Source: an uncultured Nitrososphaerota archaeon
GTDB taxonomy: Archaea > Korarchaeota > Korarchaeia > Korarchaeales > Korarchaeaceae
DNA: 32,000 nt
NCBI GenBank assembly: GCA_964480775.1
Contig: CAYZRF010000009.1
Coordinates: 30,001 to 62,000 of the forward strand
Direction: 5' to 3'
A model generated the notes under the pieces. That model did no database searches and was not told the DNA's origin. It worked only from the letters and a program-made list of their open reading frames with translations. This document shows positions 2,577 through 29,115 of the stretch, in pieces (position 1 is the first letter of the stretch; every line of letters begins with the position of its first letter). Both the position numbers and the translations under genes were made by a program.

Positions 2577-2653
2577 GGTTGTCATAAAGAGAACAAAAAG
2601 ACCCAAATCACAATAATCAACCTCTGAACTCAATTAAGCTGCTTTTCGGATAG

Positions 2654-4266: not shown

Positions 4267-4276
4267 CTTGGCTCCC

Positions 4277-5296: not shown

Positions 5297-5542
5297 TGAA
5301 TATCCCCTGTTTCGAAGCCCTATTAAGGCATAACTTGTGTCCCAATTTTAACAGTTAGTCACTAAACATCATTACTTTAAGTTAACTAAGTACTCAAATC
5401 TTATGATCTTCTCTGTTACGTAGAGTTCTCAGTTGATATTTGGCAGTCAAACCCATTTTCATGGCAAAATCTGTAGCTGTGATAAGTGATCTATCGTTCA
5501 AACATTAGACTCGCATAAATTACTGCAACTGGGTTAATCGAA

Positions 5543-8821: not shown

Positions 8822-8854
8822 TCAGGGTCAAACACTCTTATTCTTGTTGCAGAA

Positions 8855-8873
8855 GCATTAATGTGATTAATGC
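8855..8873. promoter_or_regulatory. Perfect 8-bp inverted repeat (GCATTAAT-gtg-ATTAATGC) between the two PfkB kinase genes
   Basis: Read directly from the sequence. Centred about 63 nt upstream of ATG 8927. It could be an operator or a hairpin. Confidence 0.3.
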
Positions 8874-8926
8874 ACTAATAATTGGTAAGCTGTATCTATC
8901 CTCTTCTGCTAGTTTTGGGTGATAGA

Positions 8927-9874
8927 ATGAAAGCGTGCAGAAAGAAGTTTCTAGCGTTAGGCCACCTCACAATAGATGAGTTATTTCACGAAGGAAAGAA
9001 AATTAGAGAGAGAATGGGTGGCTCTGTTGCATATGGCTCTTTAGCTGCTGCCTCCATGGGATGGAAAGCAAGCATAGTTTCAGTTATTGGAGAAGATATG
9101 CCAGAGAGCTTTCTTCATAAGCTTCATTCCAGCGGAGTTGATCTTTCTAATGTAAGGATGAGTGGTAAGCACAGTACAAGATTTCAAGTCGAAGTATCAG
9201 GTTCAAGAAGAGTTCTTTCGAAGCCAAGAAGCGCTCCAGCTTTACAATCCTTCGACATTCCAAGAGATCTAAAGGACTATGACATCTTCTTCTTTGGTCC
9301 AATAGGAGGAGAAATTGGTGTGGATCTCATAGATAAAATCAGAAAAGAAGCAAAAGGTATTTTTGCCGTCGATTTGCAAGGTTTCCTAAGGAAATTTAGT
9401 CCTAGTGGGGAGATGATTTTGGTAAAGAACGAAGATGCTCTCATAGCCTGTTCTTATTGTGATGTTGTTCACCTAGGCTTAGAAGAATATTTTGCTCTAA
9501 CAGGAACAGCAAAGTTGTATAAAGGAATAGAAATGCTTCTAGACGTGGGAGCCATAGTAATTTCCATAACTATGGGAGAAAGGGGAGCTATAGTTGCTGA
9601 CAAAGAGAAAATCCTTCACATACCAGCAATTAAACCTAAGAGAGTAGTAGATGATGTTGGAGCTGGAGACGTATTCTTAGCAGTTCTTTCTGTGTGTATA
9701 GCAGAAAATAAGGGTCTTGTGGTTTCTTCAGCTATAGCGACTGCCGCCGCATCTCTATCAATAGAACTCGACGGACCACACCTACTTAACAAGAACGAGA
9801 TAGATAGAATGTCAAAGATCGTTATACCCTTGATAACTCGCGCTTCTGATAACTTTCAATTTTCGAATTTATAG
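8927..9874 (+). CDS. PfkB-family carbohydrate/nucleoside kinase
   Basis: ATG at 8927 is preceded by GGTGAT (4-nt spacer). The track ORF starts at TTG 8882. 'GGSVAYGSLAAASMG' and the variant second signature 'DDVGAGDVFLAV' are present. Confidence 0.75.
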   Translation: MKACRKKFLALGHLTIDELFHEGKKIRERMGGSVAYGSLAAASMGWKASIVSVIGEDMPESFLHKLHSSGVDLSNVRMSGKHSTRFQVEVSGSRRVLSKPRSAPALQSFDIPRDLKDYDIFFFGPIGGEIGVDLIDKIRKEAKGIFAVDLQGFLRKFSPSGEMILVKNEDALIACSYCDVVHLGLEEYFALTGTAKLYKGIEMLLDVGAIVISITMGERGAIVADKEKILHIPAIKPKRVVDDVGAGDVFLAVLSVCIAENKGLVVSSAIATAAASLSIELDGPHLLNKNEIDRMSKIVIPLITRASDNFQFSNL

Positions 9875-9988
9875 GTGGTTATTGGTGAGTTTCTCTTCTC
9901 ATTGAATTTACTTATAACTAAAAGACAATATAGGAGAGAGGAAACTGAATATTGCAAGCTTTTAGGTGAACAGGCGAGTTGTAAAGTG

Positions 9989-10450
9989 ATGTCAATACCA
10001 ATCGAGATCGTTGAGGTTGAGGGAGAAAGCTGGTGTACAGTACTTAAACAAATGGCTAAACAACTGGTAGATAAAGGATATGTCAAGGAATCTTATGTAA
10101 ATGCCCTTATCGAGAGAGAAAAGAACTATCCCACTGGAATTAAAATCCCTTCAGGGATCAATGTTGCCATACCTCATGCCGATATAGAACATGTCTTGAG
10201 ACAGGCACTAATAATTGGTGTACCTAAGAATCCCGTTATCTTCCACAACATTGAGGAGCCGAAGGAAACTATTAGCGTAGAACTCATTCTTCTACTTGTT
10301 ATTAAAGAACCAGAGGGTTATGTTAGCTTTCTCTCAAAGTTAACTCGACTCTTTCAGGATAAAGACTTTATAACATTTGCAAAGGGGAAATTATACAAAA
10401 AACTTGCTGATCTAATAGTAGAACGATGTCTTAAAGGAAAAAGTAAGTGA
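9989..10450 (+). CDS. PTS EIIA component, fructose/mannitol/Ntr (EIIA-2) type
   Basis: 'ALIEREKNYPTGIKIPSGINVAIPHA' matches the EIIA-2 core, including the phospho-His in 'AIPH'. A 153-aa product from ATG 9989 fits the domain size. The track ORF from GTG 9875 adds 38 non-conserved residues. Confidence 0.75.
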   Translation: MSIPIEIVEVEGESWCTVLKQMAKQLVDKGYVKESYVNALIEREKNYPTGIKIPSGINVAIPHADIEHVLRQALIIGVPKNPVIFHNIEEPKETISVELILLLVIKEPEGYVSFLSKLTRLFQDKDFITFAKGKLYKKLADLIVERCLKGKSK

Positions 10451-10593
10451 TCTCGATTTCTGCCAAGGCAAAACCCTCCTCATAAAACATCTGTTTGAAA
10501 TTAGCCTTCTTTTCTGTTTAAATCAGGTTTACAACATTAGATTGCTTCTCTTAGTTATAATTTAAAATAGAGGCGCTTTATTCATCTTTCAAG

Positions 10594-11856
10594 ATGCGAG
10601 TTTCCTTTCCATATGGAGAAAAGATCCTAAAAGCCGAGATATCTTGCGAAGTACTTGTTTCAAAAGAGATGCCAACAATCAAGAATCTTGAGCAAAGCAT
10701 TTGTGACTCGCTTGAGAAACCGATTAATTCTCAACCCCTTCCTAAGCTCGTTAAGAATGCTAAAAATGTGTTGATAATAATTCCTGATATTACAAGAGCA
10801 TGCCCGACTGAAATACTCTTAAGAAATGTTATTTCAGTTATTGAAAGATGTTCTAATGCGGAGATTAGAATACTGATTGCCACGGGACTCCATAGACCCG
10901 TTAATGAGATGGAAAAGGAGAGATTAGTCGGAAAGGAAATAAAGAGCAGATACGAAGTTTTAAATCACAGTGCAGACGGATCTGAGGACTTAATTGATCT
11001 GCAGAAGAAGACATTCTATGGTACTCCAGTTGAGGTCAATAGATACGTAATGGTTAGCGATGTAGTTGTAGCAATCGGGCTTATAGAGCCCCACTTCTTC
11101 GCAGGTTATAGCGGAGGAAGAAAAGCATTGCTCCCTGGCGTTGCAAGTGCAAGCGCTATTTTCAACAATCATGGATACAAAATGATAGGGCATCAGTTCT
11201 CTAGGTGCGGGATATTAGATGGAAACCCTGTTCATCAGGATATGATGGAGTTTATGAAGGTTACAAAGCTTGATTTTATTGTAAATGTTATATTAGACAA
11301 GGACAAAAGAATTTCTGGAATATTTTCTGGAGATCCCATGGTTGCTCATCTCACTGGAGTTAGAGAATTGGACAAGTATGTTAGAATACCTTATGAAAGA
11401 GAGGCTGAAATAGTAATAACCACTAACGGTGGCTATCCTCTTGATAGAGATATTTATCAGACTGTAAAAGGCATGGATACAGCGTCATATGTGGTCAAAA
11501 AGCAAGGCGTGATAATAATCGCATCAGAGTGCAGAGACGGTTTAGGAGGTCACGAAAGTTTTCTCAAAATCTTGGAAGGAACAAGCAATCCAAAGGAAAT
11601 CCTGGAACGAATTAAAACATTAGAACCCATCTATGACCAATGGGAAGCCCAAGTTTTGGCCAGAGTCCTGTCCAAGGCACGCGTTATTGTTGTCACAGAA
11701 AATATATCTGAGAAGACACTCAGAACTCTACAACTAATGCATGCAGATAATTTAGAAGAAGCATTAGAAATAGCTTATGGCATTGTTGGAAGAGATGCTA
11801 CAGTAGTATCAATTCCAGAAGGTCCCTACATAATTCCCAGCAAGTCTACAATATAG
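10594..11856 (+). CDS. larA: LarA-like nickel-pincer-dependent 2-hydroxyacid racemase/epimerase
   Basis: 420-aa ORF. It has 'PDITRACP', 'ATGLHRP' and 'EPHFFAGYSGGRKALLPGVASASAIFNNH'. The H-x9-K-x15-H spacing is that of the LarA catalytic His, NPN-tethering Lys and Ni-binding His. A TATA-like 'TTATAATTTAAAATA' lies about 30 nt upstream. Confidence 0.8.
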   Translation: MRVSFPYGEKILKAEISCEVLVSKEMPTIKNLEQSICDSLEKPINSQPLPKLVKNAKNVLIIIPDITRACPTEILLRNVISVIERCSNAEIRILIATGLHRPVNEMEKERLVGKEIKSRYEVLNHSADGSEDLIDLQKKTFYGTPVEVNRYVMVSDVVVAIGLIEPHFFAGYSGGRKALLPGVASASAIFNNHGYKMIGHQFSRCGILDGNPVHQDMMEFMKVTKLDFIVNVILDKDKRISGIFSGDPMVAHLTGVRELDKYVRIPYEREAEIVITTNGGYPLDRDIYQTVKGMDTASYVVKKQGVIIIASECRDGLGGHESFLKILEGTSNPKEILERIKTLEPIYDQWEAQVLARVLSKARVIVVTENISEKTLRTLQLMHADNLEEALEIAYGIVGRDATVVSIPEGPYIIPSKSTI

Positions 11857-11893: not shown

Positions 11894-12337
11894 CTAACTA
11901 ACCAATATTTCGCCAACGACCTCAACTGGAATACAATGCTCTATACTCCTGGAGATATGACAGTAAGCTATTGCTAAGTCTAAACACTTTTTCGCGCCCT
12001 CAACATGCTCTTTCGGAGCATATCCTTTAACCTTAACCTTCATTTTTTTCAGCAAGTAGGCCCCTTTGACAAGTTCTACGTCAGACTCAGCCTCTAAATT
12101 AATGTCTTTTATCTGAATTCCTCTTTTCCTTATGAACCAAAGGAACGTTGTTAGGACACACCCACCTACCGAGGCCAAGAACAATTCATCTGGGCACACT
12201 CCTTCTCCAAATCCACCAAAGTCCTTAGGTGTATCTATTGTAAATGACTTTCCTCCCTCTGTTACTACAGAGGCACCAGTTCTACCATCCCACTGGATTT
12301 TAACCCTAAATTTCAATTTTTCTGCGAGTCCTGCCAT
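11894..12337 (-). CDS. OsmC/Ohr-family thiol peroxidase-like protein
   Basis: 'PDELFLASVGGCVLT' and 'AIAYCHISRS' correspond to the two conserved Cys regions of OsmC/Ohr. ATG at 12337 is preceded by GGAGGGGGAG. The track ORF begins 5 codons earlier at GTG 12352. Confidence 0.75.
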   Translation of the reverse strand: MAGLAEKLKFRVKIQWDGRTGASVVTEGGKSFTIDTPKDFGGFGEGVCPDELFLASVGGCVLTTFLWFIRKRGIQIKDINLEAESDVELVKGAYLLKKMKVKVKGYAPKEHVEGAKKCLDLAIAYCHISRSIEHCIPVEVVGEILVS

Positions 12338-12441
12338 GTTCTCCCCCTCCACCCAAGCATCAAATTAATTTAAGGGTAAATTCTCATAGCTGAAAAAGAC
12401 AGACTACTTTGTAAGACAGTTACTCCTATAGTATCTAAGTT

Positions 12442-13539
12442 TTAGCTTTTAAGAACCTCTGGATCTTCTAATTTCTTCTTTATTTTTCCTAAGAACTCAG
12501 AGGCTGGAACTCCATCAACAACTCTGTGGTCAAATACAAGGGATATATGTATGGTCGGTTTCGCACATAATTTATTCTCTACCACAGCAAGACTATGTGT
12601 AAGTGTTCCTACTCCCAAAATTGCTGATTGAGGAGGGTTTATTATTGGTATAAAGAATTTAACGTCTTTAGCTCCCAAGTTAGAAACCGTAAAGGTGCCA
12701 TTGGCTACATCCTCAGGAGACAAACCCTCTTCTCTAGCCTTTTTTGATAGATTTTCGATCTCGTTGCTGATCTCGACGAGCGATTTCTTGTCGGCGTTCT
12801 TTATCACAGGAACCACAAGACCTTGGGGCAAACTTACTGCCACTCCTACGTTTATATCTTCATATACTATTATCCTGTCTCCTTCTACACTGGAGTTTAG
12901 CATTGGATCTTCCCTTAGAGCTAAGGCGACGGCTTTAACTATCATGGCCGTAATAGAAATTTTCTTTCCATCTCTTGTTAGTCTTTTTCTCATTTCTAGC
13001 ACTTTGGTCATATCTACCTCAGCGATTATAGCAACACTTGGGATGGTTTGATGACTTTCAGTCATCCTTCTGGCTATTGTTTTTCTCATTCCTTCTATTC
13101 TAACTATTTTCATTATCTTTGGACCTTTTTCCTCCTTCTGTGCCATTTCAAGAGCTCTGATAACATCTTCTCTAACAATTCTTCCACCAGGGCCAGTACC
13201 CCTTATTTTTGAGATATCTAAACCATATTCCTTAGCTAATCTTCTTGCAGCAGGTGATATTTTGATCTTCTCCTTTGGAGGCAACTCTTCGCTCATTTCT
13301 TCGCCAGGAGCTGCGATTATAGCTATCGTCTCCGTAACAGGAACTTCATCTCCCTCTTTTGCTATTATCTTTCTTAATATGCCAGAGGCAGGGGCTTCTA
13401 CGGAGAAAATGGTTTTTTCGCCCTCAACTTTGACTATCGGTTCTCCCTCTTTAACTTCATCTCCCTCTTTTTTGAGCCATTCCACTATCTTTCCTGTCTC
13501 CATTCCAGGATCTATCCTTGGTAGGATCACTTTCTTCAT
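12442..13539 (-). CDS. 2-oxoacid dehydrogenase E2 (dihydrolipoamide acyltransferase), single lipoyl domain
   Basis: Lipoyl domain 'VKVEGEKTIFSVEAPASG', subunit-binding domain 'ISPAARRLAKEYGLDISKIRGTGPGGRIVREDV', catalytic 'DHRVVDG'. GGTGAT SD lies 3 nt before the ATG. Confidence 0.9.
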   Translation of the reverse strand: MKKVILPRIDPGMETGKIVEWLKKEGDEVKEGEPIVKVEGEKTIFSVEAPASGILRKIIAKEGDEVPVTETIAIIAAPGEEMSEELPPKEKIKISPAARRLAKEYGLDISKIRGTGPGGRIVREDVIRALEMAQKEEKGPKIMKIVRIEGMRKTIARRMTESHQTIPSVAIIAEVDMTKVLEMRKRLTRDGKKISITAMIVKAVALALREDPMLNSSVEGDRIIVYEDINVGVAVSLPQGLVVPVIKNADKKSLVEISNEIENLSKKAREEGLSPEDVANGTFTVSNLGAKDVKFFIPIINPPQSAILGVGTLTHSLAVVENKLCAKPTIHISLVFDHRVVDGVPASEFLGKIKKKLEDPEVLKS

Positions 13540-13549
13540 TATATCACCG

Positions 13550-14521
13550 CTATACTATCTCTTTAATGGTTTTCACTATGTCATCACTCCAAACCATATA
13601 TTGTTTTTCCAACGGAGGAGAAAAGGGTATAGGGACGTCAGGGGATGTAACTCTCATTATTGGCGCATCTAAGTAATCAAATGCTCCCTCCACTATGGTT
13701 GCTGTGAGTTCTGCTGTCACACTTCCTGTTTTGTGATCGTCTGCGGCTACTACAGCTCTGCCAGTCTTCTTAACAGAATCTACGATTGTTTTTCTGTCTA
13801 GTGGGCTCAAAGTCCTTGGATCTATGACTTCAACGCTAATTCCATCTCTTTCAAGCTCTTCAGCTGCTTTTAATGCTTCAACAACCATTCTAGAAACAGC
13901 TACCACCGTAACATCTTCTCCCTCCTTTTTTATGTCTGCAGAGCCTAATGGAATCTCATAAGGTTCTTCTGGCACTGGTCCTTTGGATCTGTATAGAAGG
14001 CCACACTCTATAAACAGAACTGGGTTATCATCCCTTATAGCGCTTATTAGCATTCCTTTGGCATCATAAGGCGTAGAAGGTAGCGCCACCTTAAGCCCTG
14101 GTACGTTCATGTACCAAACAGGGAAGAACTCAGAGTGTTGAGACGCATGAGCTCTTCCTAAGCTATATTGAGTTCTAACAACTATTGGGACTCTTAGCTT
14201 TCCTCCAGAGGTAAAGGACATTTTAGCTGCCTGGACCACCAGTTGTTCGGTGGCAATCGGCAGAAAGTCCATGTACATTATCTCGGCTACTGGCCTTAAG
14301 CCCATAAGAGCTGCTCCTATTGCTGCTCCAACTATCGCTGCCTCTGAGATGGGGGTATCCCTGACCCTCTCCTGACCGAACTCGTCCAATAGACCTTTTA
14401 ATACTTTAAAGGCGCCCCCATAAACCCCAATGTCTTCTCCAAGAAGAAAGACATTTTGATCTCTTTGCATTTCCTGCCTTAAAGCTTCTCTTATTGCTTC
14501 TGCATAGGTGATTTCCCTCAT
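13550..14521 (-). CDS. 2-oxoacid dehydrogenase E1 component, beta subunit
   Basis: 323-aa ORF with typical E1-beta/transketolase-like motifs ('GEDIGVYGGAFKV', 'RVRDTPISEAAIVGAAIGAA'). The start overlaps the E1-alpha stop by 4 nt. Confidence 0.9.
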   Translation of the reverse strand: MREITYAEAIREALRQEMQRDQNVFLLGEDIGVYGGAFKVLKGLLDEFGQERVRDTPISEAAIVGAAIGAALMGLRPVAEIMYMDFLPIATEQLVVQAAKMSFTSGGKLRVPIVVRTQYSLGRAHASQHSEFFPVWYMNVPGLKVALPSTPYDAKGMLISAIRDDNPVLFIECGLLYRSKGPVPEEPYEIPLGSADIKKEGEDVTVVAVSRMVVEALKAAEELERDGISVEVIDPRTLSPLDRKTIVDSVKKTGRAVVAADDHKTGSVTAELTATIVEGAFDYLDAPIMRVTSPDVPIPFSPPLEKQYMVWSDDIVKTIKEIV

Positions 14522-15546
14522 CTAAATGTCACCTCCTCAAGAATGTCGAAAGGTGGAAAATCACTTCTTTTAGAAAATTCCACGGCTTCTTCTATCTCTT
14601 CTCTAACCTCGCGCTCAAGTTTTTTGAGTTCTTCGCTGGATAGTATTCTGAGTTCCAATAACAATCTTGAGAACCTATTTATGGGATCTAGCTCTTGCCA
14701 TCTTTTTTCCTCTTCTTTAGATCGATACTCAGCTTTGTCATAAACTCCATGGCCTTTCATTCTGTAGGTTAAAAACTCAATTAACGTCGGACCTTCTCCT
14801 CTTTCTGCTCGCTCTTTCGCCTTTATAGCAGCCTTATAGACCGATAGAACGTCATTTCCGTCCACGATCATACCTGGAATCCCGTATGCAATAGCCCTAA
14901 AAGCAACTCTTCCGCAAGTAACTGCCTTGTTCGCAGGCATCGATATCGCATATTGATTATTTTCACATGCAAAAATTACAGGAAGCTTCCAAAATGAAGC
15001 AAGATTAAGGGCTTCGTGCCAAGCACCAGTGTTTGCCGCTCCATCGCTAAAGAAAGCTACTGAAACTCCTGATTTTCCGCTGTATTTTAAAGCCAAGCCC
15101 GCTCCTACAGCAATAGGCACGCTGCTACCAACTATTGCTGATGCCCACATCGCTCCTTTTTCAGGATCTATGCATGCATGCATAGATCCGCCAAGCCCTT
15201 TGCAAACACCAGTAACTTTGCCAAACAATTCGGCCATCACTTCTTTTGGAGAAATATCCATTGCTAGGGCGTGACCATGACCTCTGTGTGTGCTAAAAAC
15301 ATAGCCATTTCCCTTTATCGCAGAACAGACTCCAACTGCTATTGCTTCCTCGCCAAAATAGAGGTGAGCCGCTCCCTTTAAGGCAGCTTCGTATACATAG
15401 AGTTTTTCTACTTTTTCTTCAAATATCCTTATCTCTAACATTTTTCTGAGCATTTGAATCAATTCACTTTTCTCTAATCCTATTTCGTAAATTTCCGAAG
15501 GATCTATCCCTTTTATTTCCTCTATTTCCCATTCTAGTTTAGTCAA
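14518..15546 (-). CDS. 2-oxoacid dehydrogenase E1 component, alpha subunit (TPP-binding)
   Basis: 342-aa ORF with a TTG start. The TPP motif is 'FFSDGAANTGAWHEALNLASFWKLPVIFACENNQYAIS'. Substrate (pyruvate, branched-chain or acetoin type) is not assignable by eye. Confidence 0.88.
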   Translation of the reverse strand: MTKLEWEIEEIKGIDPSEIYEIGLEKSELIQMLRKMLEIRIFEEKVEKLYVYEAALKGAAHLYFGEEAIAVGVCSAIKGNGYVFSTHRGHGHALAMDISPKEVMAELFGKVTGVCKGLGGSMHACIDPEKGAMWASAIVGSSVPIAVGAGLALKYSGKSGVSVAFFSDGAANTGAWHEALNLASFWKLPVIFACENNQYAISMPANKAVTCGRVAFRAIAYGIPGMIVDGNDVLSVYKAAIKAKERAERGEGPTLIEFLTYRMKGHGVYDKAEYRSKEEEKRWQELDPINRFSRLLLELRILSSEELKKLEREVREEIEEAVEFSKRSDFPPFDILEEVTFR

Positions 15547-15751
15547 GACCTTATCCCAAGGTGATTTCAGGCCTTTACTATTATATTTTTGTGATAATGG
15601 TTTTCAGCAACCATTAACTCGAAGGTAAAGGTAAAAAGATCCAAAGGATACATTGATCGTCCTTACAGTTAAAAGTGCTTTAACAGGAATGATAATGTAG
15701 GATACTAGGTAGAAGAACGAGGCCCCGAGATGATGTCAAGGAGGGACAGAG

Positions 15752-16027
15752 ATGGCTAGGGTGGAAACGACTGTAAAGCTCCTGAACAAGGTAGGACTAC
15801 ATGCCAGACCAGCATCGTTATTTGTTCAAGCCGCAAAGAAGTTTAAGTCTCAAATCAAAGTCAAGAAAGATGGAAATGAAGTTGACGCAAAGAGCATCCT
15901 AGGAGTTTTATCCTTAGGGGCTGAATGCGGACATACCATAACAATTACTGCAGAAGGACCTGATGCAGAAGAAGCGATTAATGAGCTTGTCTCTTTGGTT
16001 AAGAACAAGTTCGGGGAGGAAGAGTAA
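15752..16027 (+). CDS. ptsH: Phosphocarrier protein HPr
   Basis: 91-aa ORF. 'NKVGLHARPAS' contains the His15 site and 'AKSILGVLSLG' the Ser46-like region. AGGAGGG SD (15739-15745) lies 6 nt upstream. Confidence 0.9.
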   Translation: MARVETTVKLLNKVGLHARPASLFVQAAKKFKSQIKVKKDGNEVDAKSILGVLSLGAECGHTITITAEGPDAEEAINELVSLVKNKFGEEE

Positions 16028-16029
16028 CA

Positions 16030-17751
16030 GTGGAAAAACTAAAAGGAATACCAGCATCGCCAGGCATAGCAATTGGAAGGGCCTTCATATTCAAGAGTGA
16101 AAGGAGGGAGGTTGTGAAAAAAGAGATTCCTCCCGAGCTTATTGATACGGAAATAAATAGATTTAATCAAAGTTTAGGGAAAGCAAAAGAATTTCTAACA
16201 GAATTGATGGAAAAAGTTAGAAGAGAGGTAGGAGAGGAGGAGGCGAAGATTTACGAGGCTCAACTAATGATGCTTGAGGACGAATCTTCATTTATCGAAC
16301 CAGTGAAGAAGATGATTTCTAATAAGAAAGTTTGCGCAGAGTTTGCCGTTGAAAAAGTTCTCGATGAGATTATTGCCATATTCAAGAAAATGGATAACGA
16401 GTACATGAGAGAACGCGCAACTGACGTTAAAGACGTAAAAGAACTCGTAATAAGCTTTCTGTCTGGAAAAAAGAGAGGAGTCAAAGAATTAACAACAAAG
16501 TGTGTTATAGTAGCAAGTGAACTCTTACCGAGCGACATAGCTGCTCTTAACAAAAGAATGGTCTTGGCGTTTGTGACAGAGACTGGAGGATCTACCTCTC
16601 ATGTCGCGATAATAGCTAGGACTCTTAAGATTCCAGCAGTGGTAGGGATAGAGAACCTGTCTAACAGGGTTAAAGAAGGAGACATGCTTATCGTTGATGG
16701 ATATGAGGGATTATTATTACTCAATCCAACAGAGGAGATTGTGTCTCTCTATCAAAAGAAGAAGAAAGAAGGGGAAGTAATGTTCGTTGAACTGGTTAAA
16801 GAAGCAAAACTACCAGCAACTACAAAAGATGGATTTAGATTTAAGGTCTTTGCTAATGTTGGCAATTTGGAAGATGTAAAAAAAGCAATTGAGTATGGGG
16901 CTGAAGGCATAGGTCTTCTTAGGACGGAATTCATGTATACGGAAAGAGAAAATATGCCTACCGAAGAAGAACTCTTTCAAACCTTTCTCGAAATAAGCAA
17001 GTTAATGGGCGACAAACCAATCATCATCAGAACTTTGGATATCGGGTGTGATAAGCCGCTTCCATATCTTGAAATGCCCAAGGAAGCAAACCCTTTCCTT
17101 GGCTGGAGGGGTATTAGATTAACTCTAGAAAACCCTGAGATACTAAAAATCCAGTTTAGAGCGGTCTTGAGAGCTTCAACAAAAGGGACCTTCAAGATTA
17201 TGTTTCCCATGGTAACAACGTTGGAGGAAGTCGTAAAGGCAAAAGAAATTTTAAAAGAAGTCTCAAAAGAGTTAAGTATCGAAAAAATCTCTTTTAAAGA
17301 AGTTAAAGTAGGAACTATGATCGAAACTCCAGCTTCAGCTATGATTGTAGATATCCTTGCTAAGGAGGTGGATTTCTTTAGCATTGGAACTAATGATTTG
17401 GTTCAGTATCTAATGGCTGCAGATCGAGGAAACGCAAGAGTTTCAGGACTCTATAGGCCTTTTCATCCAGCAGTTTTAAGGATGATACACAAAATAATTG
17501 AGGATGCTCATAAAGCTGGAAAAGAAGTTGGAATGTGTGGAGAAATGGCATCAGATCCAAAAGCAATTCCTATCCTTGTAGGAATGGGTTTGGACGAGTT
17601 TAGCATGAGTCCGTCTTCGATTCCGAGGGCTAAAAAAGTGATAAGGTCCATAAGTAAAAAGGAGGCTGTTAACCTCCTGCGAGAAGTCTTAAAGGCTAAG
17701 ACTATTTCAAATGTATTAGAAAAAGTTTCAAAATTTAGAATTGAGTTTTGA
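16030..17751 (+). CDS. ptsI: PEP-protein phosphotransferase (PTS Enzyme I)
   Basis: 573-aa ORF with a GTG start 2 nt after the ptsH stop. Phospho-His motif 'GGSTSHVAIIARTLKIPAVVG', PEP-utilising C-domain 'IGTNDLVQY' and 'GMCGEMASDP'. Confidence 0.92.
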   Translation: MEKLKGIPASPGIAIGRAFIFKSERREVVKKEIPPELIDTEINRFNQSLGKAKEFLTELMEKVRREVGEEEAKIYEAQLMMLEDESSFIEPVKKMISNKKVCAEFAVEKVLDEIIAIFKKMDNEYMRERATDVKDVKELVISFLSGKKRGVKELTTKCVIVASELLPSDIAALNKRMVLAFVTETGGSTSHVAIIARTLKIPAVVGIENLSNRVKEGDMLIVDGYEGLLLLNPTEEIVSLYQKKKKEGEVMFVELVKEAKLPATTKDGFRFKVFANVGNLEDVKKAIEYGAEGIGLLRTEFMYTERENMPTEEELFQTFLEISKLMGDKPIIIRTLDIGCDKPLPYLEMPKEANPFLGWRGIRLTLENPEILKIQFRAVLRASTKGTFKIMFPMVTTLEEVVKAKEILKEVSKELSIEKISFKEVKVGTMIETPASAMIVDILAKEVDFFSIGTNDLVQYLMAADRGNARVSGLYRPFHPAVLRMIHKIIEDAHKAGKEVGMCGEMASDPKAIPILVGMGLDEFSMSPSSIPRAKKVIRSISKKEAVNLLREVLKAKTISNVLEKVSKFRIEF

Positions 17752-17859: not shown

Positions 17860-18108
17860 ATGCCTAAATTTCATGTACGCATCCAAAGAGAAGAGTGCAT
17901 TATGGATGGTGTTTGTTGGTCGTTGTGTCCTGATGTATTTGAAGCTAATTCTGAGGATGGGAAGTCCCAAATAACGAAAAAATATAGGATAAATAACAGG
18001 ATAGATGATGGAGAGGTTCTAGAGAATTTGGAAGCTTGCGTTAAAGAGGCTTCTATGGCTTGTCCTGTACAGATAATACGCGTTGAGGAATTCGGAGACA
18101 ATGATTAA
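17860..18108 (+). CDS. Single-cluster [4Fe-4S]/[3Fe-4S] ferredoxin, Pyrococcus furiosus Fd type
   Basis: 82-aa ORF. 'CIMDGVCWSLCPDVFE' and the distal 'ACPVQII' parallel P. furiosus Fd 'CIGDAICASLCPDVFE...ACPVSAI', including Asp in place of the second Cys ligand. Confidence 0.8.
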   Translation: MPKFHVRIQREECIMDGVCWSLCPDVFEANSEDGKSQITKKYRINNRIDDGEVLENLEACVKEASMACPVQIIRVEEFGDND

Positions 18109-18327: not shown

Positions 18328-18438
18328 GTGCCAGATGTAGAGAGAGGTGTTGATATAAGACTTCTCGTTGTATCTTTGGTGCTATTTTTATTTGTACTTA
18401 ATTCTTTTTCCTTATACGTCTATACTTACGCGCAGTCT
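18328..18438 (+). other. N-terminal signal peptide / signal anchor of the giant protein
   Basis: A charged n-region ([11 protein letters not shown]) is followed by the hydrophobic '[24 protein letters not shown]' and then 'QSSS'. Confidence 0.6.
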
Positions 18439-21400
18439 TCTTCTAGAGGAAATTTTGGACCCTCTCTTAGTATTAACCCTAGAAATCAAGGCCATATTCC
18501 CTTTCTTCAAAGGATCGAGGACATCTCAATTGAAGTCGATCTAGATGCACCTCAAGAGGTTGGAGAGTGCTCTCCTTCTACTTTTATCATAGAAGTTAAG
18601 AATACAGGGAATGAGACGGCAAAAAACCTGAATGTAACTAATGTAATGCCTGAGGGATTCTTTTATCAAGAAGGCAGTTCTTCAATAAATGGAACCCCCC
18701 ATGAGCCCACCCAGAGTGGTAGAAATCTTACTTGGAGCATAGGAGATGTTACTCCTAACCAGACTTTTATCTTAGAATTTAACTTAACTGCTGGATGTGA
18801 AGCACATACCGGGGCAGTAGACAAGGCCGTTGTAGAATATTCAAATGGGACTCACACAGATTACAGGGAAGATGAATCGTTGGGAATTAAAGTCCTTCAT
18901 CCTTCTCTTGTCGTTTACAAAGAACCTATTGTGATTCCAGCCCATAAAGGGGACATCGTGAACTGGACCGTCAGGGTCAAGAACGAGGGATTTTTCGCAG
19001 CCTCAAACGTGACGATTTTAGATTCTTTGGGGAGTGGTCTTTCCCTTAATTCTTCGAATCCATCTTATAACGGTTCTTTCCCTAATGGGACCATCTATTG
19101 GACCAATATCTCCCTAGATGTGGGTGAAGAGTTTGTTATTCAGCTCAAAGTAAAAGTTGTAGGTTGCGAGAATCTTACCAACGAAGTTAGAGCCTATCCC
19201 ACGTGCAATGGTCAAGTTTGTAGAAGGGTTGATGGGGTCCTAACAGAGCTTCCAAACACTCTTGCTTCCATAGAGTTTCTCAAAAGAGTTCCAAACATAC
19301 AAATTACTTCATCCACATTAAATCCAAGTCTAATAGGACCATGTAGTCCCTCAAACTTCACAATTTTCTTGGAAAATCAAGGAACCGGAGCTTCTTATTC
19401 AACCAACGTTACACTTGAATTGAGAGGTGGATTACAGTATGTAAACGGGAGCGGAAATCCAACTCCTACTGTTAATGGCGAAGTCTTAACGTTTCATATA
19501 GGTACAATAGAGCCTGGAGGAACCAGTAAGATATCCATGAACTTGTCCATCCCTTGTGGGACAAGCGGGACAAAACAGATTTTGATTCATATGAGATATT
19601 TCGATGAATGTGATAATCTTTGGCTCCCTCCAAGCACTTACCTTGGTGTTGATACATCTTCGCCATCGGTAAGCGTCAGCAAAACTGGACCTCATGAAAT
19701 AATCAACACAAGTTCTGGAGAGGTTTATACGGTAGATGTGGCTTGTAACGGCCTTAATCTCTGTCAAAACGCCCATGTGATTGTTAATGATTCAATACCT
19801 TCAATGCTCACTTACGTGAACAGCACCCCTCCGGGAAATTACGATCCAGTCAAAAACACCGTAACCTGGAATCTATCTGCAGGGAACTATACACTAAACA
19901 TCACATTGAAGCCCTCTCCTTCAGCAGGATGTGGGGATCATGGGATGAACGAAGTTACTGCAACGCTATTCTGCTGTAAAAATTGTAGCATTTCGGATTC
20001 CTCTTCCATATCCATAAGAGTAACCTGTTCTGAAATTCCGTCAGATTGTTTTCAAATAAGGTCATTCTCAAATCAGTCCTCTGTAGAACCCTGTAAAGGG
20101 TTGAACTACACCTCGACCATCAATTTTCTGGTCGATGGTATAAATTCCACTCGTTCCAACATGATATATTTCCATTACAATGAAAATGGGTTGAAGGAGG
20201 AGTACGTTGGTCCAGCTTACCTCTACCTTCCAAACGGGACTCAAGTTGCATTAGGTCCGCCTTTGCAGAATTCAACATGCCTGAGCTGGAATCTCAGCTC
20301 TTTGAACTTCATAGTCAATTCCGGAGACTCCATAAACATAACGTATGTCCTCAGAGTGAAGTGCAACGCTTCTTCATACATTCACGACGTCCAAGGATTC
20401 TCAATGACAGCAAGGGACTCTGCTGGAAACGACCTTAATTGCTCCGGTGTTGCGAGATGGGCAGCCTATATCTTGATCATAAGGGCCTCTATGTCGATTT
20501 CTGAGGAAATACCTCCCCTTCTGGACTTGTGTAGGGAGAGAGAGTATGAGGTGAGAGTAGAAGGTGCCACCAGCGCAAATCCGGGGTATAATGTTACCGT
20601 GGCAAAATACGTTCCTCCTAACTTCATTTATAACTCTACTACAGAAGTAGAGTTCTCGAACGGAACTATAGTCCAAGTCACTCCTTATTTTGAGAACAGA
20701 TGGCTAATTTGGAATAAATCAATCGTTTCCCAGCTTTCTAAGGTTGACTGTGATTTTTGGATAAGAGTAAATATGACTGCATGCTACAACAGGACCCCTG
20801 GCTTCCACTTTAAGGCAAATCTTACATGGGATGATTACTGTTTATATATTGGAGGGTGTACACCGGATTGTACTTGTAGACGTACGGACATATATGACAG
20901 CGGTTCAATTCTCATCCTGAAACCTGAGTTCGTTATACTTAAGACTCCAGAGGTTATTTATGCTATACAACAAGAAGTAAAATGGAGGATTCAGCTCTCA
21001 AATGTAGGAAACGGCTCTGCATATTCACCAGCTTTCAAGCTTGTCGATCTCCTTGGAGAGGGTCTCGTATGCGTTGGAACTGACTTGCCAACTGGTTGGT
21101 CTGCAACTATCTCGCCTGACAGAAGAAACGTGACCTTTACTGCTCAATCCCTTGACGCAGGGGAGACTGTCGAGTTTAACTTGACCGCTAAGATGGTTAA
21201 GTGTGAGGGACTAACGAACAATGTCTCTGCTTTGTGGGGATGCTGCGGTAAATGGTTCCAGATGGATTTCGATAACTCTTCCGTAGAGGTCCCATCGGCA
21301 GCAGTATCAATCACAGATCACTTAGAACCGCAAGCAGCCAAACTTTGTTACGATCAAAAAGTAACAGTTAAGCTGAAGAACGTAGGTAAAGTTGCCATCT

Positions 21401-24400
21401 ATAACTGTACCTTAAACTATACGCTTCCAAATTGCTATGTCTACAATAGCAATGTCCAGGCCTATGTGAACGGAACTCCATTTAATCCAAATCTCTCAGG
21501 CAATAGATGGGCGCTCTGGAACTTCACGCAAACAACATTCGATGAAATTCTTCCGAATGAGTTTACAGAAATCGTTTTTAACGCAACAGCAACGTGTCCA
21601 TGCGACATAGATAATTCTGGTGGCTACTCAGCAACGTTACTTTCCTATGCCAAAGCCTGTGGACAAGTCGTCGGTCCATTCAATTACACTGGAACTGCGC
21701 TTTACACAGTAGATGCTCCGGACATCTACCTTGTAGTCCCATCCTATATCTGTGGGGAGGCCGGAGATATTGTATGGTGGAATTTAACAATTAGAAATAG
21801 AGGAAGTGCTACTGCAGAGCTTGTTAATGTTACGGTCGAGATTCCGGCAAGCGTTTCAGTGATATCTACGATTCCTGCTCCAGACTCAGTTGCAGGCAAC
21901 ATTTACACCTGGTTAACTCAGTCAGTTGGTGGTAAGGTTCCTGACATACCCCCGAACGGGGAATTTGAGATAGACATGCGCGTTAGGGTTGATGATTGTG
22001 ATCCTCAAGATTATCTTAAAGTGAAGATAGAAGATGGTTGCCCTGGATGTTTCTTTGAAAGGGAATGGTACAATAATACTACCTATGTCCACAGTCAACC
22101 ATTCCCACCCGAAATACATCAAGACTTAGAACCTGTTAACGCGTGTGGAAATGCAACATATAAAGTGCAAGTAGCAAACGAAGATCCCTGTCTCTCGTTG
22201 TACGCAACTCAACAAGGCGCAAATTATGTCCTAACTTTCCTCGATTATCTGCCAACCGGGATATCATACAGAGGCGAGTCAGGCGACTGGGATGTCCTAT
22301 TCCATGATAATGAGACGGGATCAAACACTAGCATGAATGCCAATACGATTTTTTCTTATGATCAGGTTAATAACGTCATAAACTGGACGATCGTCCTCTC
22401 ATCTTTTGAGATGACACCTGGAGATTATTTCATATTCACCTTCAACGTTACATCTCAGATCTGTGATCTTTCGTCAGGAAATAACGTGTTTCAGGCTACA
22501 AAGTTCAAAGATTCTTGCGGATATGATATTTCAGCAAGTAACACCGCTAGAGCACCGATTTTATTACCAGATCTATCGATATCCAAGACTCCTAGCGTTC
22601 AATACGGTGATCTTTACGATCAGGTTTGCTGGAACATACGGGTCACCAACAACGGTAACGGCACTGCCTACAATGTTACAATATGGGATGTACTCTGCCA
22701 AGCTTTGTCTTTTGATGAGAATGCTCAAGCATCAACAACGCCCTGGGACCTAGTTTATCTCCCTGGGGTTAATGCGTCCGGGGCTGAGACGACTATAGTC
22801 TGGAAGAATAGAGTTATACCACCTGGAGGTTATGTCACATTAGTCCTATGCGCAAATATCTCGGCTTGTCCTGTTCCTCCACAACACCCATACGATGATG
22901 CTTATGCGAACTGGGGGTGTGACTCCTACTGTAATTACTCAACTCCAGTCCATGCTCATGCCGATGTCTACATGTATGGAGTTCCAAGTCCACTCTCGAA
23001 GTCTCCGACGTCATTTAATGTTTGTGGAAATGAAACGATAGAAATTTCAGTAACCAACGCAGGCGCGACGATGTTTGGAATATGCATAAATGAAACGCTT
23101 CCGTATGGTCTTGATCCCATTTTCATTGACACCTCAGGAAATGTTCTTGCAAACGTTACCTTAGGGACGACTACCTACTATAACGTGCCGAGTAACTATA
23201 CTGTAAGTGTTTCAGGGCTGTACGAAAGAATAATTTGGAATCTAACGAAAATTAATGTTTCACAAGGTCAAACACTATATTTGAGATTTAGGGTTCATGC
23301 AAATTGTAGTTTTGATTTCTCTACTGAGACAGTTAACATCACGTATTGGGACTCCTGTGGAGAAGTTTATTCTATGGAGAGAGAAGATCTCCTCAGGCCC
23401 CTCAGACCAGATTTATCGATAAGCTATAAGACTAAAACCCAGCCAGCTGGTAGACCCGATAGATTTGAACTTGTTGAGTGGGAAATTCATGTGATAAACT
23501 CTGGAGACGGGGATCTTTACTTCTTAAACGTTTCAGACAAGTTGGGATCTCAATTCAAATTTATTTCATCATCACCCTCTCCAGATTGGGTTGATGACCC
23601 ATTAGACCCTCACATCCTAAAGTGGAGTTTTGACTGGAGTAGCAGTCCGTTATCTCCTGGAGATGAATACGTAATAACTATCAGGGCGAACCTTACTGGT
23701 TGTGCAGAGCCCGGATGGAACAATGCATCTCTAGTTTGGGGTTGTGATTCTGTAGCTTGTGCACCAATTTCTTGGGCAAATAGCTCCGTTGAGAGAGCAA
23801 AACCCGACCTAGTTGTTTCTTATTCATCTCCGCCCTTCTTGATCTGTGGAAATACTACTGTCAATTTCTACGTTACAAATATTGGTGATGGGTCTGCTTT
23901 TGGATTTAACTCCAGCCAGCCATTTAAATTGAGATATCTCTTCCCTGTAAGAGCTCCAAATCTTGATTGCATGAAATATGTTTCCGGAAGCACGAACATC
24001 TCGTTCTCAAACGGGACCATAATACATCCAGAGCCTCAGATATTGATGGTTGGGGGAGAGAAGTTCCTTGAATGGAACCTGTATTGGATACAAGTTGGAC
24101 CTGGAGAACGGATAAATGTCAGCTTTAAGGTCATTGCCTCTTGCTGTTTCCAAAAAGGAGACAATGGTTCGGCATATGCTAGCTGGTATGACTTATGTGG
24201 TAATTTCGGTGAAGACGAGGATATAGATGCGGCCTCTCAAATACTAATTCCGGACATTTCCTTGAGTAAAACGCCAACCACTGTTGGGGCAGATCGTTGG
24301 GATAACGTCTCTTGGCTTATCGAAGTGCGGAATGATGGGAATGGAACTGCTAATTTTGTGAACGTCACGGAAGTATTTGGATCGGGACTTACATATATCA

Positions 24401-27234
24401 CAGATAATGCCTCTCAATACAGAGTTTATTCAGACCATAACAAGGTTGTCTGGAACTTAACAGAAATACCTGCAGGAGATAGGATTCTCATAGTATCGTG
24501 GGCAAATGTCTCAGGATGTAGTGGACTGACAAACGATGTTTACGCAAGCTGGGGATGTATTGGGGCAATTTGTCAGGAGAAGAATAGCTCAACAACAGTT
24601 TATTTGATTTGGCCAAACATATCAATAAGCAAAAAACCGGTTGGGGGTACTTGCCCAGTTAGAGTTGAGCCAGGAGATGTTACCACATTTGAGATTTTGT
24701 TAAATAATTCTGGAACAAAAGGCACGGGGTATAACCTCACAGTAGAGGACGAAATGCCTTCGTTCATGGAGTTTTTAGACGCAAGCGATGGAGGTACTTA
24801 CAACGCTAGTACCCACAACGTCACATGGAAGATCTCAAAGCTAGGAAATGAGACTATGATGTTAACCTTGACTATGCGTGTTAAACCTGGAACTCCAGAC
24901 GGAGCTGCTGAAATTAACAACGTTACTGTCACTTACTTTGACGCCTGTGGCAATACTAAGAACCCAGACACTGGCGCTCCTTATTGGGACAAAGCAGAGT
25001 GTAAGATGATAACTGTTGCTGCTCCAGAGTTAAGAATCAATAAAACAATATCAGAAAATCCAATAAATGCTTGTCATAACGTCAGCGTCATTTTAACAAT
25101 TAGAAACATTGGACATGGAACTGCATATTCTGTAAATGTCTCAGATATTCTTCCACCAGGAATAGAGTATGTCAAAGGATCAACCGAGGTAAGAAACTCT
25201 TCTACAGGTGCCATAATATCAACGGCAGATCCTGTGGTAACCACGATGGGAACTTCTGGGAGAACTAACCTTACATGGCCTCTTAATTTAAAGATGAACG
25301 GAAAGGAGAATATAACCATAAGCTTTAATCTAACTGCTGGGTGCGGGCTTAAAGCAGGGTTAGAAGAGTTTTCTGTTGTTGGTAAGGATGGAGGAGGGTT
25401 CATTAAGAGAGACAGTGGTTCTATGGATATTTTGGTCGTAATACCAGTTCTTGAAGTCGAAAAAGAGCCAGAATCACAGACAAAGTCCCTCGGGAGCGTT
25501 GTAGAATGGACGATAACCGTCAGAAATGTTGGAAACGGGACCGCACACAACGTGACGTTAGTAGATCAGCTTGGTCCAGGTTACGAATTTGTTTCTGCAA
25601 ACGGTTCTTACAGCATATCAGGAAACACAATAACGTGGACTAACATCTCTTTGACTTCAGGATCCTCTCAGAGCTTTAACATTAAGGCGAGGATCTCCAA
25701 GTGTTCTGGTCTAAAGGAGCACGTTGAAGCCAGTTGGTGGTGTAGAAACGTATCTTGTGCCTCATCCGAGGCAGAGGCAAGGGTTTCTCTTAGAGCTCCC
25801 AAATTAACGGTTGAAAAGCAATTCAATGCCAGTTTCGTTAAGATAAGAGAGCCAGTTCTTGCAACGATCAGGGTCAGAAACGTTGGAAATGAAGGGGGAA
25901 CAAATCTAATGGTTTTTGAACCTCTACAAGAATGTTGGACTTTCCTTGGAACGGTTAGTGTTCTGGACGAATCGGGTAGGCCAGTTGGATACAAAGAAGA
26001 AATCACTACAGAGGGAGTGGTTTGGAGGATAAACTCCTTAGGCAAAGGAGAGGAGGTCGAGATAAAATTCGTTATAACTTATGATTGCAATTCGCTTCCA
26101 GGATCAAGACGTCAGCACAACTTCACAAACTGTGTTCTAGCAAATCTTACAGGAAGTTGTGGTCCAGTGTCGGCGACCAATTGTTCATGGATTGTCGTGG
26201 AACTCCCATCGAGAACACCGACACCTACTCCGACTCCCACTGTTACTCCGACTCCAACACCCACAGCCACACCAACCCCAACACCGACACCTACTCCGAC
26301 TCCCACTGTTACTCCGACTCCAACACCGACGCCTGCCCCACCGATCAAACTGAAGGTTTCAAAAGCCTCTAAGAAGATCATAATGTGGGGAGATCTGGTA
26401 AACTACACGGTTATAGTAAGGAATGAAGGAAATACCAACCTAGTAAACATAGCGGTGACAGACAATCTTCCTTCTTACCTTGAATACATACGTGGAACTT
26501 CTACGATAAATGGTCATAAATCTGAACCAAAAATTGAGCAAGATTCGCTTATTTGGATAATTTCGTCTCTAGCTCCAGGAGAAGAAGCCATCATAAAGTT
26601 CAGTTGTAGGATGCTTGAATACCCAAGAGGAGGCATCATAATCAATCCTGTGAATGTAAGAGGGTTCGAGACGTACGCACGGTCTCTAATATATGCCCCA
26701 ATTTCATTACTTCTATTAATACCGTTATTTGTACTGACAACAAGGAGGAGACCTGTAGTTGTCGACTTTGAATATCTAAAAACGCTATTCAAAGCAACGG
26801 ATTTCTTCCTTCCGTTTCTCTTCGGAAAAATTATAATCTCAAAATCTACATTTGAAAAGGCTACAAGAGATAAGAAAATCAGCAACATAGTTGAAGAACT
26901 CGTTTCAAGAGGTCTAATTCAAGTTCACGAACTATCACAAGAAGCTAGGGAACTCTCAGAAGAAATTACAAGCATCTATCAGGTAGAAAAAGAGGAAGGC
27001 GATGCTATAGCACTATCACTTCAATGCGAAGCTGAGAAAGCTCTGTTAGGTAGAATTAAGACAAGAGAGGTTGCTATTTCATTGGGTATAAGAGCGTTGG
27101 GGTGTGGAGGTTCGATATTTTATCTAATCGAGAAGGGCTTGATCACCAAAGAGGAGGGGCGAGTCCTTCTCGATTTTTTAGTTTCTGAGGGATATCTTAC
27201 AAGTTCCGAAGATATAAGTTTGGGAGGGGTGTGA
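18328..27234 (+). CDS. Giant (2968 aa) DUF11/CARDB-like repeat surface glycoprotein with PT linker, C-terminal TM anchor and cytoplasmic PIN-like tail
   Basis: Uninterrupted 8.9-kb ORF with a GTG start. N-terminal signal/anchor. About 20 Ig-like modules carry the DUF11 core '[VI]xWx[IV]xVxNxGNGTAxNVxVxDxL'. By my hand count there are roughly 115 N-x-S/T sequons. Cys-rich. PT-rich linker, TM helix, then a 163-aa tail. Confidence 0.9.
26215..26343 (+). repeat. Pro/Thr-rich linker containing a perfect 47-nt direct repeat (26215-26261 and 26281-26327, 66-nt period)
   Basis: 'acaccgacacctactccgactcccactgttactccgactccaacacc' occurs twice, identically. The region translates to [43 protein letters not shown]. 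Confidence 0.95.
26686..26742 (+). other. C-terminal transmembrane anchor of the giant protein
   Basis: '[19 protein letters not shown]' is followed by the stop-transfer residues 'RRR'. Confidence 0.75.
26743..27231 (+). other. Predicted cytoplasmic PIN-like domain (COG2405/DUF3368-type), probably catalytically degenerate
   Basis: The 163-aa tail resembles the family consensus as I remember it. The matching segments are '[30 protein letters not shown]' and '[44 protein letters not shown]...[13 protein letters not shown]'. The usual DD pair is GR here. Confidence 0.55.
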
Positions 27235-27235
27235 A

Positions 27236-29022: not shown

Positions 29023-29115
29023 TTTTCGATCCCTGAACAATAGTTCATGCACCTAAAAAAGGATTTGTCATGTTGAAGTAATCTGTTAGCAAATATTCGG
29101 AAATCTGTCTTAAGG

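Follow-up and report, generated by a model that had tools for sequence, protein, structure and literature searches.

An apparently intact EI-HPr-EIIA relay, most likely of galactitol type, without EIIB or EIIC genes in 32 kb of an archaeal contig

The phosphotransferase system (PTS) of Brucella is reportedly a described case of a PTS that lacks a permease. In a survey of bacteria, 21% of the genomes encoded soluble PTS proteins only, according to the figure quoted in PMC8100219 (Barabote and Saier 2005), and in Archaea the fructose PTS of haloarchaea was the only PTS transporter known to a survey of 2008 (PMC2405797). Here we describe a locus of an uncultured archaeon (contig CAYZRF010000009.1 of GenBank assembly GCA_964480775.1, positions 30,001 to 62,000 of the forward strand) that encodes Enzyme I (EI, ptsI), HPr (ptsH) and a standalone EIIA, and from which EIIB and EIIC are missing. 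The window is this whole stretch of 32 kb, and all positions are counted within it; 23 open reading frames (ORFs) taken as genes cover 92% of it, the 22 long ORFs were scanned against Pfam, and family assignments rest on Pfam and NCBIfam profile scans against curated cut-offs. Judged from sequence, the three genes are most likely the cytoplasmic phosphoryl-transfer half of a galactitol-type sugar PTS (Gat; Asc-Gat superfamily; PF03611). The part of the window in which they lie is set out below, with related loci designated by L numbers and the forms of EIIA, EIIB and EIIC found in L009-L011 marked with a prime.

7009-7875, plus strand: BtpA/SgcQ-family protein (PF03437 and TIGR00259 above cut-offs)
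7979-8821, plus strand: PfkB_a, PfkB-family sugar or sugar-phosphate kinase (PF00294, 174 bits)
8882-9874, plus strand: PfkB_b, second, divergent PfkB-family kinase (PF00294, 87 bits)
9875-9988: spacer between PfkB_b and EIIA, where L009-L011 have an FGGY kinase, a 78-aa ORF, EIIC-GAT' and EIIB'
9989-10450, plus strand: standalone EIIA of the PTS_EIIA_2 (Gat/Fru/Mtl) class (PF00359, 94.5 bits)
10594-11856, plus strand: homologue of LarA-type nickel-pincer hydroxyacid racemases/epimerases (PF09861, PF21113)
11894-12337, minus strand: OsmC-family protein, which flanks the PTS cluster in all relatives
12338-12441: spacer between OsmC and E2, where L003/L004, L015, L006 and L008 have EIIB, EIIC-GAT and a small membrane protein
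12442-15546, minus strand: 2-oxoacid dehydrogenase E2, E1-beta and E1-alpha
15547-15751: spacer between E1-alpha and ptsH, where L003, L015, L006, L008 and Kor4 have a ribulose-phosphate 3-epimerase (RPE)
15752-16027, plus strand: ptsH, HPr of 91 aa (PF00381, TIGR01003)
16030-17751, plus strand: ptsI, Enzyme I of 573 aa with a GTG start (PF05524, PF00391, PF02896, TIGR01417)

The initial annotation had judged EI, HPr and EIIA to be catalytically intact, and the profile scans bear this out: every motif quoted there is present, HPr and EI pass TIGR01003 and TIGR01417, and EIIA matches PF00359. HPr scores 114.8 bits on PF00381 and 103 bits on TIGR01003 (cut-off 47.9), is 86-92% identical to the HPr proteins of its relatives and carries the phosphorylation-site His17 (equivalent to His15) in GLHARPAS (nucleotides 15794-15817). 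A Ser46-type motif, KSILGV (Ser48, equivalent to Ser46; nucleotides 15890-15907), is also present; it is common to all archaeal HPr homologues examined and to the Firmicutes relatives and is by itself uninformative, and no HprK was found among the window ORFs. EI matches PF05524, PF00391 and PF02896, all above their cut-offs, and scores 634 bits on TIGR01417 (cut-off 341.7). Its HPr-binding N-terminal domain, mobile histidine domain and PEP (phosphoenolpyruvate)-binding TIM barrel are all in place, as are the motif GGSTSHVAIIAR with the catalytic His191 (GGSTSH), Cys503 in GMCGEM, and LLRTEF, IRTLDIG, MIETP and GTNDL. Only 2 nt separate the ptsH stop from the GTG start of ptsI, and a GGAGG-like sequence precedes each gene. 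EIIA has its active-site His63 in AIPHA. In NCBIfam it comes closest to a GatA-like model, with 74 bits where 139 are required, and in the PDB to 1XIZ. The longest EIIA ORF begins with the GTG at 9875, right after the PfkB_b stop, and gene callers record this 191-aa form (P0138). Its 38 extra residues have no counterpart in homologues, and the ATG at 9989 agrees with the family alignment.

Searches for the missing half of the system within the window were uniformly negative, as the initial annotation had stated. Neither EIIB nor EIIC was found among the 22 long ORFs scanned against Pfam; tblastn of the window with the EIIB, EIIC, RPE and FGGY kinase of relatives gave no match; and custom hidden Markov models (HMMs) of the relatives' EIIB, EIIC-GAT, RPE, FGGY kinase and small membrane protein, run on every stop-to-stop frame, reached at most 8 bits. 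The same holds for the three spacers in which relatives carry the genes in question. The 9875-9988 spacer contains no remnant of EIIC', EIIB' or the FGGY kinase by tblastn, HMM or local alignment, and by tblastn and HMM there is no EII remnant in 12338-12441 and no RPE remnant in 15547-15751. The claim that ABC-2 permeases are the only ones present likewise stands, the sole membrane-transport genes in the window being two weak ABC-2 permeases and an ABC ATPase. Two Logan assemblies reproduce this arrangement: a 1174-bp sequence of SRR15988953 is 100% identical to window positions 15633-16806, and a 3464-bp sequence of SRR15988952 (L018) is 100% identical to positions 8368-11831, thereby covering the 9875-9988 junction. 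Because these independent assemblies agree at 100%, the order PfkB-PfkB-EIIA-LarA without EIIB and EIIC is not the artefact of one assembly.

How did this arrangement arise? Relatives with the same gene backbone fall into two kinds. L003/L004 and L015/L016 (EI 73% and 70% identical to that of the window, respectively) have OsmC, then EIIB, EIIC-GAT and a small membrane protein, then E2, E1-beta, E1-alpha and RPE, then HPr and EI, and finally FBPase and M60; L015 stops just past OsmC and L016 is partial. In L003/L004, PfkB_a, PfkB_b, EIIA and a cupin additionally lie upstream of OsmC. L006 and L008, both named Korarchaeota (EI 51-53%), have a cupin and OsmC, then EIIA, EIIB, EIIC-GAT and a gene without assignment, then E2, E1-beta, E1-alpha and RPE, followed by HPr and EI. 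The second kind is represented by L009-L011, where BtpA and PfkB_a are followed by the FGGY kinase, the 78-aa ORF and EIIC-GAT' on the minus strand and then by EIIB', EIIA' and LarA; the locus continues with a ThiS-like gene, a class II aldolase and AFOR, then OsmC, E2, E1-beta and E1-alpha, then ferredoxin and FBPase, and it contains neither HPr nor EI. EIIB' of L009-L011 is a divergent GatB-like EIIB, with a full-length PF02302 alignment (E 5e-5 to 2e-3), a match to NF007643 and an ACGS cysteine motif.

The window combines the EIIA' and LarA of the L009 type with the HPr and EI of the L003 type, and it has neither set of EIIB/EIIC genes and no RPE. Its EIIA is 68-69% identical to EIIA' of L009-L011 and 30-35% identical to EIIA of the L003/L004-type and L006/L008 loci, and the order EIIA-LarA is common to the window and L009-L011. 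PfkB_a is syntenic in L003, L010 and L019; PfkB_b shares 56% identity with its L003 counterpart and 64-65% with those of L019 and L020. Since relatives have EIIB and EIIC-GAT in the same locus, we interpret the permease-less state as a product of gene loss rather than a dedicated design. The EIIB'-EIIA' adjacency extends to L013, a Thermoproteota/Korarchaeota-related assembly with EI, HPr, EIIA' and EIIB' followed by EIIC' and FGGY, and to L012, a Njordarchaeales contig where the EIIB'-EIIA' pair adjoins EIIC-GAT', which argues that EIIA without EIIB is a derived state.

Based on these observations, we favour a split sugar PTS in which a working relay serves an EIIB and EIIC encoded outside the window, a reading to which we give about an even chance. 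In this scheme, which follows the known mechanism of the family, PEP would phosphorylate EI at His191, and the phosphoryl group would pass to His17 of HPr and on to His63 of EIIA. In the relatives the next acceptor after EIIA would be the cysteine of the small GatB-like EIIB, and the last a sugar or sugar acid taken up via EIIC-GAT. In the lineage of the window, the flanking EIIB and EIIC genes would have been deleted from a complete cluster, and the remaining relay would feed a permease encoded at a distal site. Split arrangements are indeed found in the clade: L009 has EIIC', EIIB' and EIIA' without HPr or EI, and L005 (JGI GBSed_10000921; EI identity 70%) has HPr and EI without a nearby EII. 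In L005, ptsHI lies beside genes for an MFS transporter, an ABC permease, a RuBisCO large-subunit homologue and adenylosuccinate synthase, and no EII gene occurs within ~5 kb upstream or ~10 kb downstream. The initial annotation had offered a regulatory or kinase-coupled PTS, or a split system with its permease elsewhere; the split system is still the leading reading, and the analogy with the nitrogen-related PTS (PTS-Ntr) and the kinase-coupled form are not supported.

The relay of the window looks to be still under selection. Across 126 homologues, EI keeps the consensus residue in every column of 97% conservation or more and departs from it once, by the conservative change L376F, in columns of at least 93%, so that its conservation is equal to or better than that of permease-bearing relatives. 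Synonymous sites are saturated with respect to every relative (dS 1.3-2.2 to the nearest and 1.3-3.0 across relatives), and therefore pairwise dN/dS and Tajima relative-rate tests are the only usable measures. Pairwise dN/dS is ~0.07 for EI, 0.03 for HPr and 0.07 for EIIA'; these values match those of LarA and OsmC and are two- to fivefold above those of the dehydrogenase genes and FBPase. In the relative-rate tests the branches are equal for E1-alpha, E1-beta, E2, OsmC and HPr, and EIIA' shows no significant excess (17 versus 9 and 10 versus 9). By our own estimate, roughly 1% neutral divergence should be enough for a stop or frameshift to arise in ~2.45 kb of coding sequence that is free of constraint. 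Because all three genes are intact on a branch with dS of order 1, the relay was probably functional until very recently or is so now.

Several observations weigh against a split system. The evidence spans the 32-kb window, and the EIIB and EIIC that this reading places elsewhere in the genome are hypothetical. The absence of EIIB' right beside EIIA looks like a deletion rather than the relocation of a module. When a protein collection was searched with an EIIC-GAT profile, no match on the source contig of the window was retrieved; recall was imperfect, and this negative is weak since the search missed the cluster of its own query, the EIIC of L003. The closest EIIC candidates belong to other organisms: P0168 to GCA_037917685.1, which has an EI of its own, and P0165 to the L009 lineage. 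EI has in addition accumulated ~1.5-1.8 times as many private substitutions on the window branch as on its sisters (44 versus 24, 51 versus 32 and 48 versus 28); chi-square values were 3.4-5.9 in six of nine Tajima comparisons and 0.5-2.8 in the other three, the tests not being independent, and the extra substitutions all fall at variable positions. Finally, the relay is dispensable in the subclade, as L019 and L020 have lost EIIA, HPr and EI.

These two loci, found by a LarA-anchored scan of JGI metagenomes, are the nearest known relatives of the window. Their proteins are 93% (E1-beta), 91% (BtpA), 90% (FBPase), 85% (E1-alpha) and 84% (E2) identical to those of the window, and LarA and OsmC are each 77-78% identical. 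The gene order is BtpA, PfkB_a, PfkB_b, a 251-bp spacer, LarA, OsmC, E2, E1-beta, E1-alpha, a 104-bp spacer, ferredoxin, FBPase and M60, and no intact PTS gene is found at the locus. The larger spacer (L019:2923-3170; L020:921-1168) retains 26-35 nt from the 3' end of EIIA', with an in-frame CGA->TGA change. Local alignment of this remnant scores 37 against the window EIIA gene (19 +/- 2.5 for shuffled sequences) and 30 against the EIIA' gene of L010 (18.5 +/- 2.0), and none of 300 shuffles reached either score, which indicates that EIIA' was once present in L019/L020 and was then deleted. The spacer between PfkB_b and EIIA in the window aligns with the L019 spacer or with the EIIB' region of L010 no better than shuffled sequence does. 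A loss of EIIB' and EIIC' shared with L019/L020 and an independent loss seem to require similar numbers of events and to be about equally parsimonious. The resulting series runs from L009, with EII genes and no HPr or EI, through the window, with a relay and no EIIB or EIIC, to L019/L020, with nothing. As the closest relatives also lack EIIA, HPr and EI, the subclade appears to be losing its PTS genes piecemeal.

An alternative is that the genome contains no EIIC at all and that phospho-HPr or phospho-EIIA is under selection for the control of something else. BtpA, PfkB_a, PfkB_b, LarA or the PEP/pyruvate balance at the 2-oxoacid dehydrogenase would be candidate targets. Such a regulatory relay would explain why the locus has neither EIIB nor EIIC nor any remnant of them, why the three proteins have kept their integrity and conservation although divergence from every relative is saturated, and why EIIA and LarA have stayed adjacent in two lineages; the soluble-only PTS sets of bacteria, in 21% of the surveyed genomes and in Brucella, mean that the idea is not far-fetched. 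However, the components are of the sugar-transport and not the Ntr type, and no target, regulator, PRD-domain protein or HprK was found among the window ORFs. Moreover, L019 and L020 have deleted the relay and yet retain BtpA, both PfkB kinases and LarA, so these proteins do not depend on it. The alternative further rests on the unproven premise that no permease is encoded anywhere in the genome. We regard it as unlikely, although it is the strongest competitor of the split system, and slightly less likely again is its more specific form, in which the relay was kept after the loss of every PTS permease as a PEP/pyruvate sensor controlling sugar and hydroxyacid metabolism.

It is also conceivable that EIIB and EIIC were deleted so lately that EI, HPr and EIIA are already functionless and have not yet decayed, the window being a step toward the state of L019/L020. 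Stepwise loss across the subclade, from L009 through the window to the EIIA scar of L019/L020, and the moderately faster evolution of EI on the window branch are in keeping with such a relic. Nevertheless, the ~2.45 kb of coding sequence is free of stops and frameshifts, every near-invariant EI position has been retained, the additional EI substitutions lie at variable positions, and neither HPr nor EIIA shows a significant rate excess. With dS above 1 to the nearest relative, the prior chance of a snapshot taken just before decay is small, except after a very recent deletion, and we consider this explanation improbable. Least credible of all is an assembly or binning chimera of two related populations whose joins removed the EII genes, since, although the window mixes L003-type HPr/EI with L009-type EIIA/LarA, its genes are 56-93% identical to those of each known relative and near-identical to none, which marks a distinct lineage, the two Logan assemblies come from two sibling runs and match at 100% over the region upstream of E1-alpha, HPr and EI and over PfkB_a-PfkB_b-EIIA-LarA, and L019 and L020 have the same backbone.

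To which PTS family do the genes belong? EI and HPr pass the models of the general PTS and fail those of the Ntr branch. The PTS-Ntr analogy drawn in the initial annotation was examined component by component. EI has no N-terminal GAF domain and matches NF008283 only from profile position 170 (444.6 bits versus 583); EIIA scores 23.4 bits on the PtsN model TIGR01419 (cut-off 138.7), and HPr 55.9 bits on the NPr model NF008146 (cut-off 119). For a kinase-coupled PTS, DhaK, DhaL and DhaM genes were sought; the window ORFs contain no Dha domain, and the DhaM model picks up nothing but EI and HPr, in partial alignments below threshold. All matches to Gat equivalog or subfamily models lie below the curated cut-offs, and no substrate is assignable from them. 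The FGGY kinase of pentulose/xylulose type, the class II aldolase/epimerase and LarA of the L009-type loci suggest a pentulose, sugar alcohol or sugar acid as a candidate substrate.

The genes around the relay form a co-directional run, BtpA-PfkB_a-PfkB_b-EIIA-LarA, with BtpA first. BtpA/SgcQ proteins and PfkB kinases are typically found as downstream partners in Gat/Sgc-type PTS operons (E. coli sgc operon). The LarA-like protein scores 441 bits on the lactate racemase model NF033504 (cut-off 460), and the window contains none of the cofactor-synthesis genes LarB, LarC and LarE. A TATA-like TTTAAAATA box lies ~28 nt 5' of the LarA ATG, and the gene thus seems to have a TATA-like box of its own. 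Both PfkB kinases of the window are intact despite the lost permease genes; in L010 and L011, where the permease is kept, PfkB_a is broken into fragments of 90 and 124 aa (860-1795) and PfkB_b is absent. The E2, E1-beta and E1-alpha genes, joined by RPE in most cases, separate the EII genes from ptsHI in every related lineage down to 51% EI identity. They remain where all PTS genes are gone, and there is no adjacent E3 gene. The linkage between dehydrogenase and PTS may reflect plain ancestry, or pyruvate made by the PTS may be coupled to oxidation.

The archaeal context proposed in the initial annotation is well founded. Among GTDB species-representative genomes the sole match was 'Thermoproteota archaeon isolate Kor4', with an EI identity of 69%; identities are 68-73% in the metagenomic clade, 51-54% in Candidatus Korarchaeota and ~50% in Odinarchaeota and thermophilic Firmicutes. 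The lineage that has an orthologue of the EIIA of the window has an EIIC recorded as 'Candidatus Korarchaeota archaeon', the window encodes an archaeal-type fructose-1,6-bisphosphate (FBP) aldolase/phosphatase, and PolB and a RadA-like gene occur in one syntenic relative. In a neighbour-joining tree of EI, the window grouped with Kor4, L003, L005, L013 and named Korarchaeota, with Firmicutes apart; this tree comprises the top 120 hits only, is midpoint-rooted and supports no firm conclusion on horizontal transfer. The remainder of the window is occupied by the following genes.

83-1021, minus strand: ribokinase-like PfkB, passing TIGR02152
1233-2576, plus strand: amidohydrolase
2654-5296, minus strand: two weak ABC-2 permeases (2654-3457 and 3454-4266) and an ABC ATPase (4277-5296)
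5543-6892, minus strand: amidohydrolase
17860-18108, plus strand: small single-cluster ferredoxin, downstream of ptsI
18328-27234, plus strand: 2968-aa DUF11-repeat protein
27236-27700, plus strand: 154-aa ORF
27922-29052, minus strand: class V FBP aldolase/phosphatase (FBPase)
29116-30960, plus strand: M60-like protein
31156-31857, plus strand: proteasome-like ORF

The ribokinase, the two amidohydrolases and the ABC-2 exporter-like set at 83-6892 have no tie to the PTS genes. The ferredoxin gene also follows EI in Kor4, and it follows E1-alpha in L009 and L020. The 2968-aa ORF, between the ferredoxin and FBPase genes, has at least 11 DUF11 repeats as well as CARDB and DUF7507 matches. As ferredoxin and FBPase are adjacent, or nearly so, in L003, L009, L015 and L020, the stretch 18328-27700 appears to be a ~9.4-kb lineage-specific insertion with the gene of a giant surface-type protein. 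A tRNA scan of the window found none.

What does a relay stripped of its local permease tell us? We see in it the dismantling of a known system and not a system of a new kind. In Korarchaeota-like assemblies, genes of a Gat-type PTS turn up repeatedly, and the assemblies to which EI or EIIC-GAT homologues are assigned by name include those of Korarchaeota, Odinarchaeota, Njordarchaeales, Bathyarchaeota, Thermoprotei, Desulfurococcaceae and Asgardarchaeia. The view that PTS components are rare in archaea and known mainly from haloarchaea and Thermofilum is therefore too narrow, and a literature search on PTS in Korarchaeota returned nothing relevant by title or abstract. The subclade offers a natural dissection series, with a complete system, EII genes without HPr and EI, a relay without a permease and a mere scar, and it could show which PTS parts persist after transport is lost, and why. 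If an EIIBC were encoded at a distal site, the locus would be part of an ordinary split sugar PTS. If the genome were permease-less throughout and the relay still selected, it would provide a handle on PTS-based regulation in Archaea, and a relay acting as PEP/pyruvate sensor would give that domain its first PTS with a regulatory, non-transport role.

How, then, does the locus compare with described systems? Bacterial PTS-Ntr and the Brucella PTS resemble the window in that EI, HPr and EIIA are present and no permease is encoded nearby, but the window has no GAF domain on EI, no PtsN, no NPr and no rpoN linkage, and its state is derived from a transport PTS. The haloarchaeal fructose PTS (Haloarcula marismortui pNG700; Haloferax volcanii) likewise places bacterial-type EI, HPr and EII in an archaeon; it is of Fru class and belongs to another phylum, whereas the window is of Gat class and EIIB and EIIC are missing. 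GatABC of E. coli is closer. The window shares with it an EIIA_2 whose best NCBIfam match is GatA, EI and HPr of standard type and PfkB-family kinases nearby, and the relatives add a GatB-like EIIB (PF02302, NF007643) and an EIIC of PF03611/TIGR00827; it differs in its archaeal host, in the lack of EIIB and EIIC in the window and in a cluster interleaved with 2-oxoacid dehydrogenase genes. We know of no test of the function of the E. coli sgc operon itself, which is labelled putative. This operon, sgcXBCQAER, encodes the set found in the archaeal relatives, namely SgcA (EIIA_2), SgcB (EIIB), SgcC (EIIC-GAT), SgcQ (BtpA) and SgcE (RPE). The identities are 33% between BtpA of the window and SgcQ, 41% between L003 EIIC and SgcC, 33% between L003 EIIB and SgcB and 28% between L003 RPE and SgcE. 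Counterparts of SgcR and SgcX are absent from the window, and ptsHI belong to the archaeal locus. Of the sgc set, the window keeps the SgcQ-like and SgcA-like parts only, its EIIA being 23% identical to SgcA.

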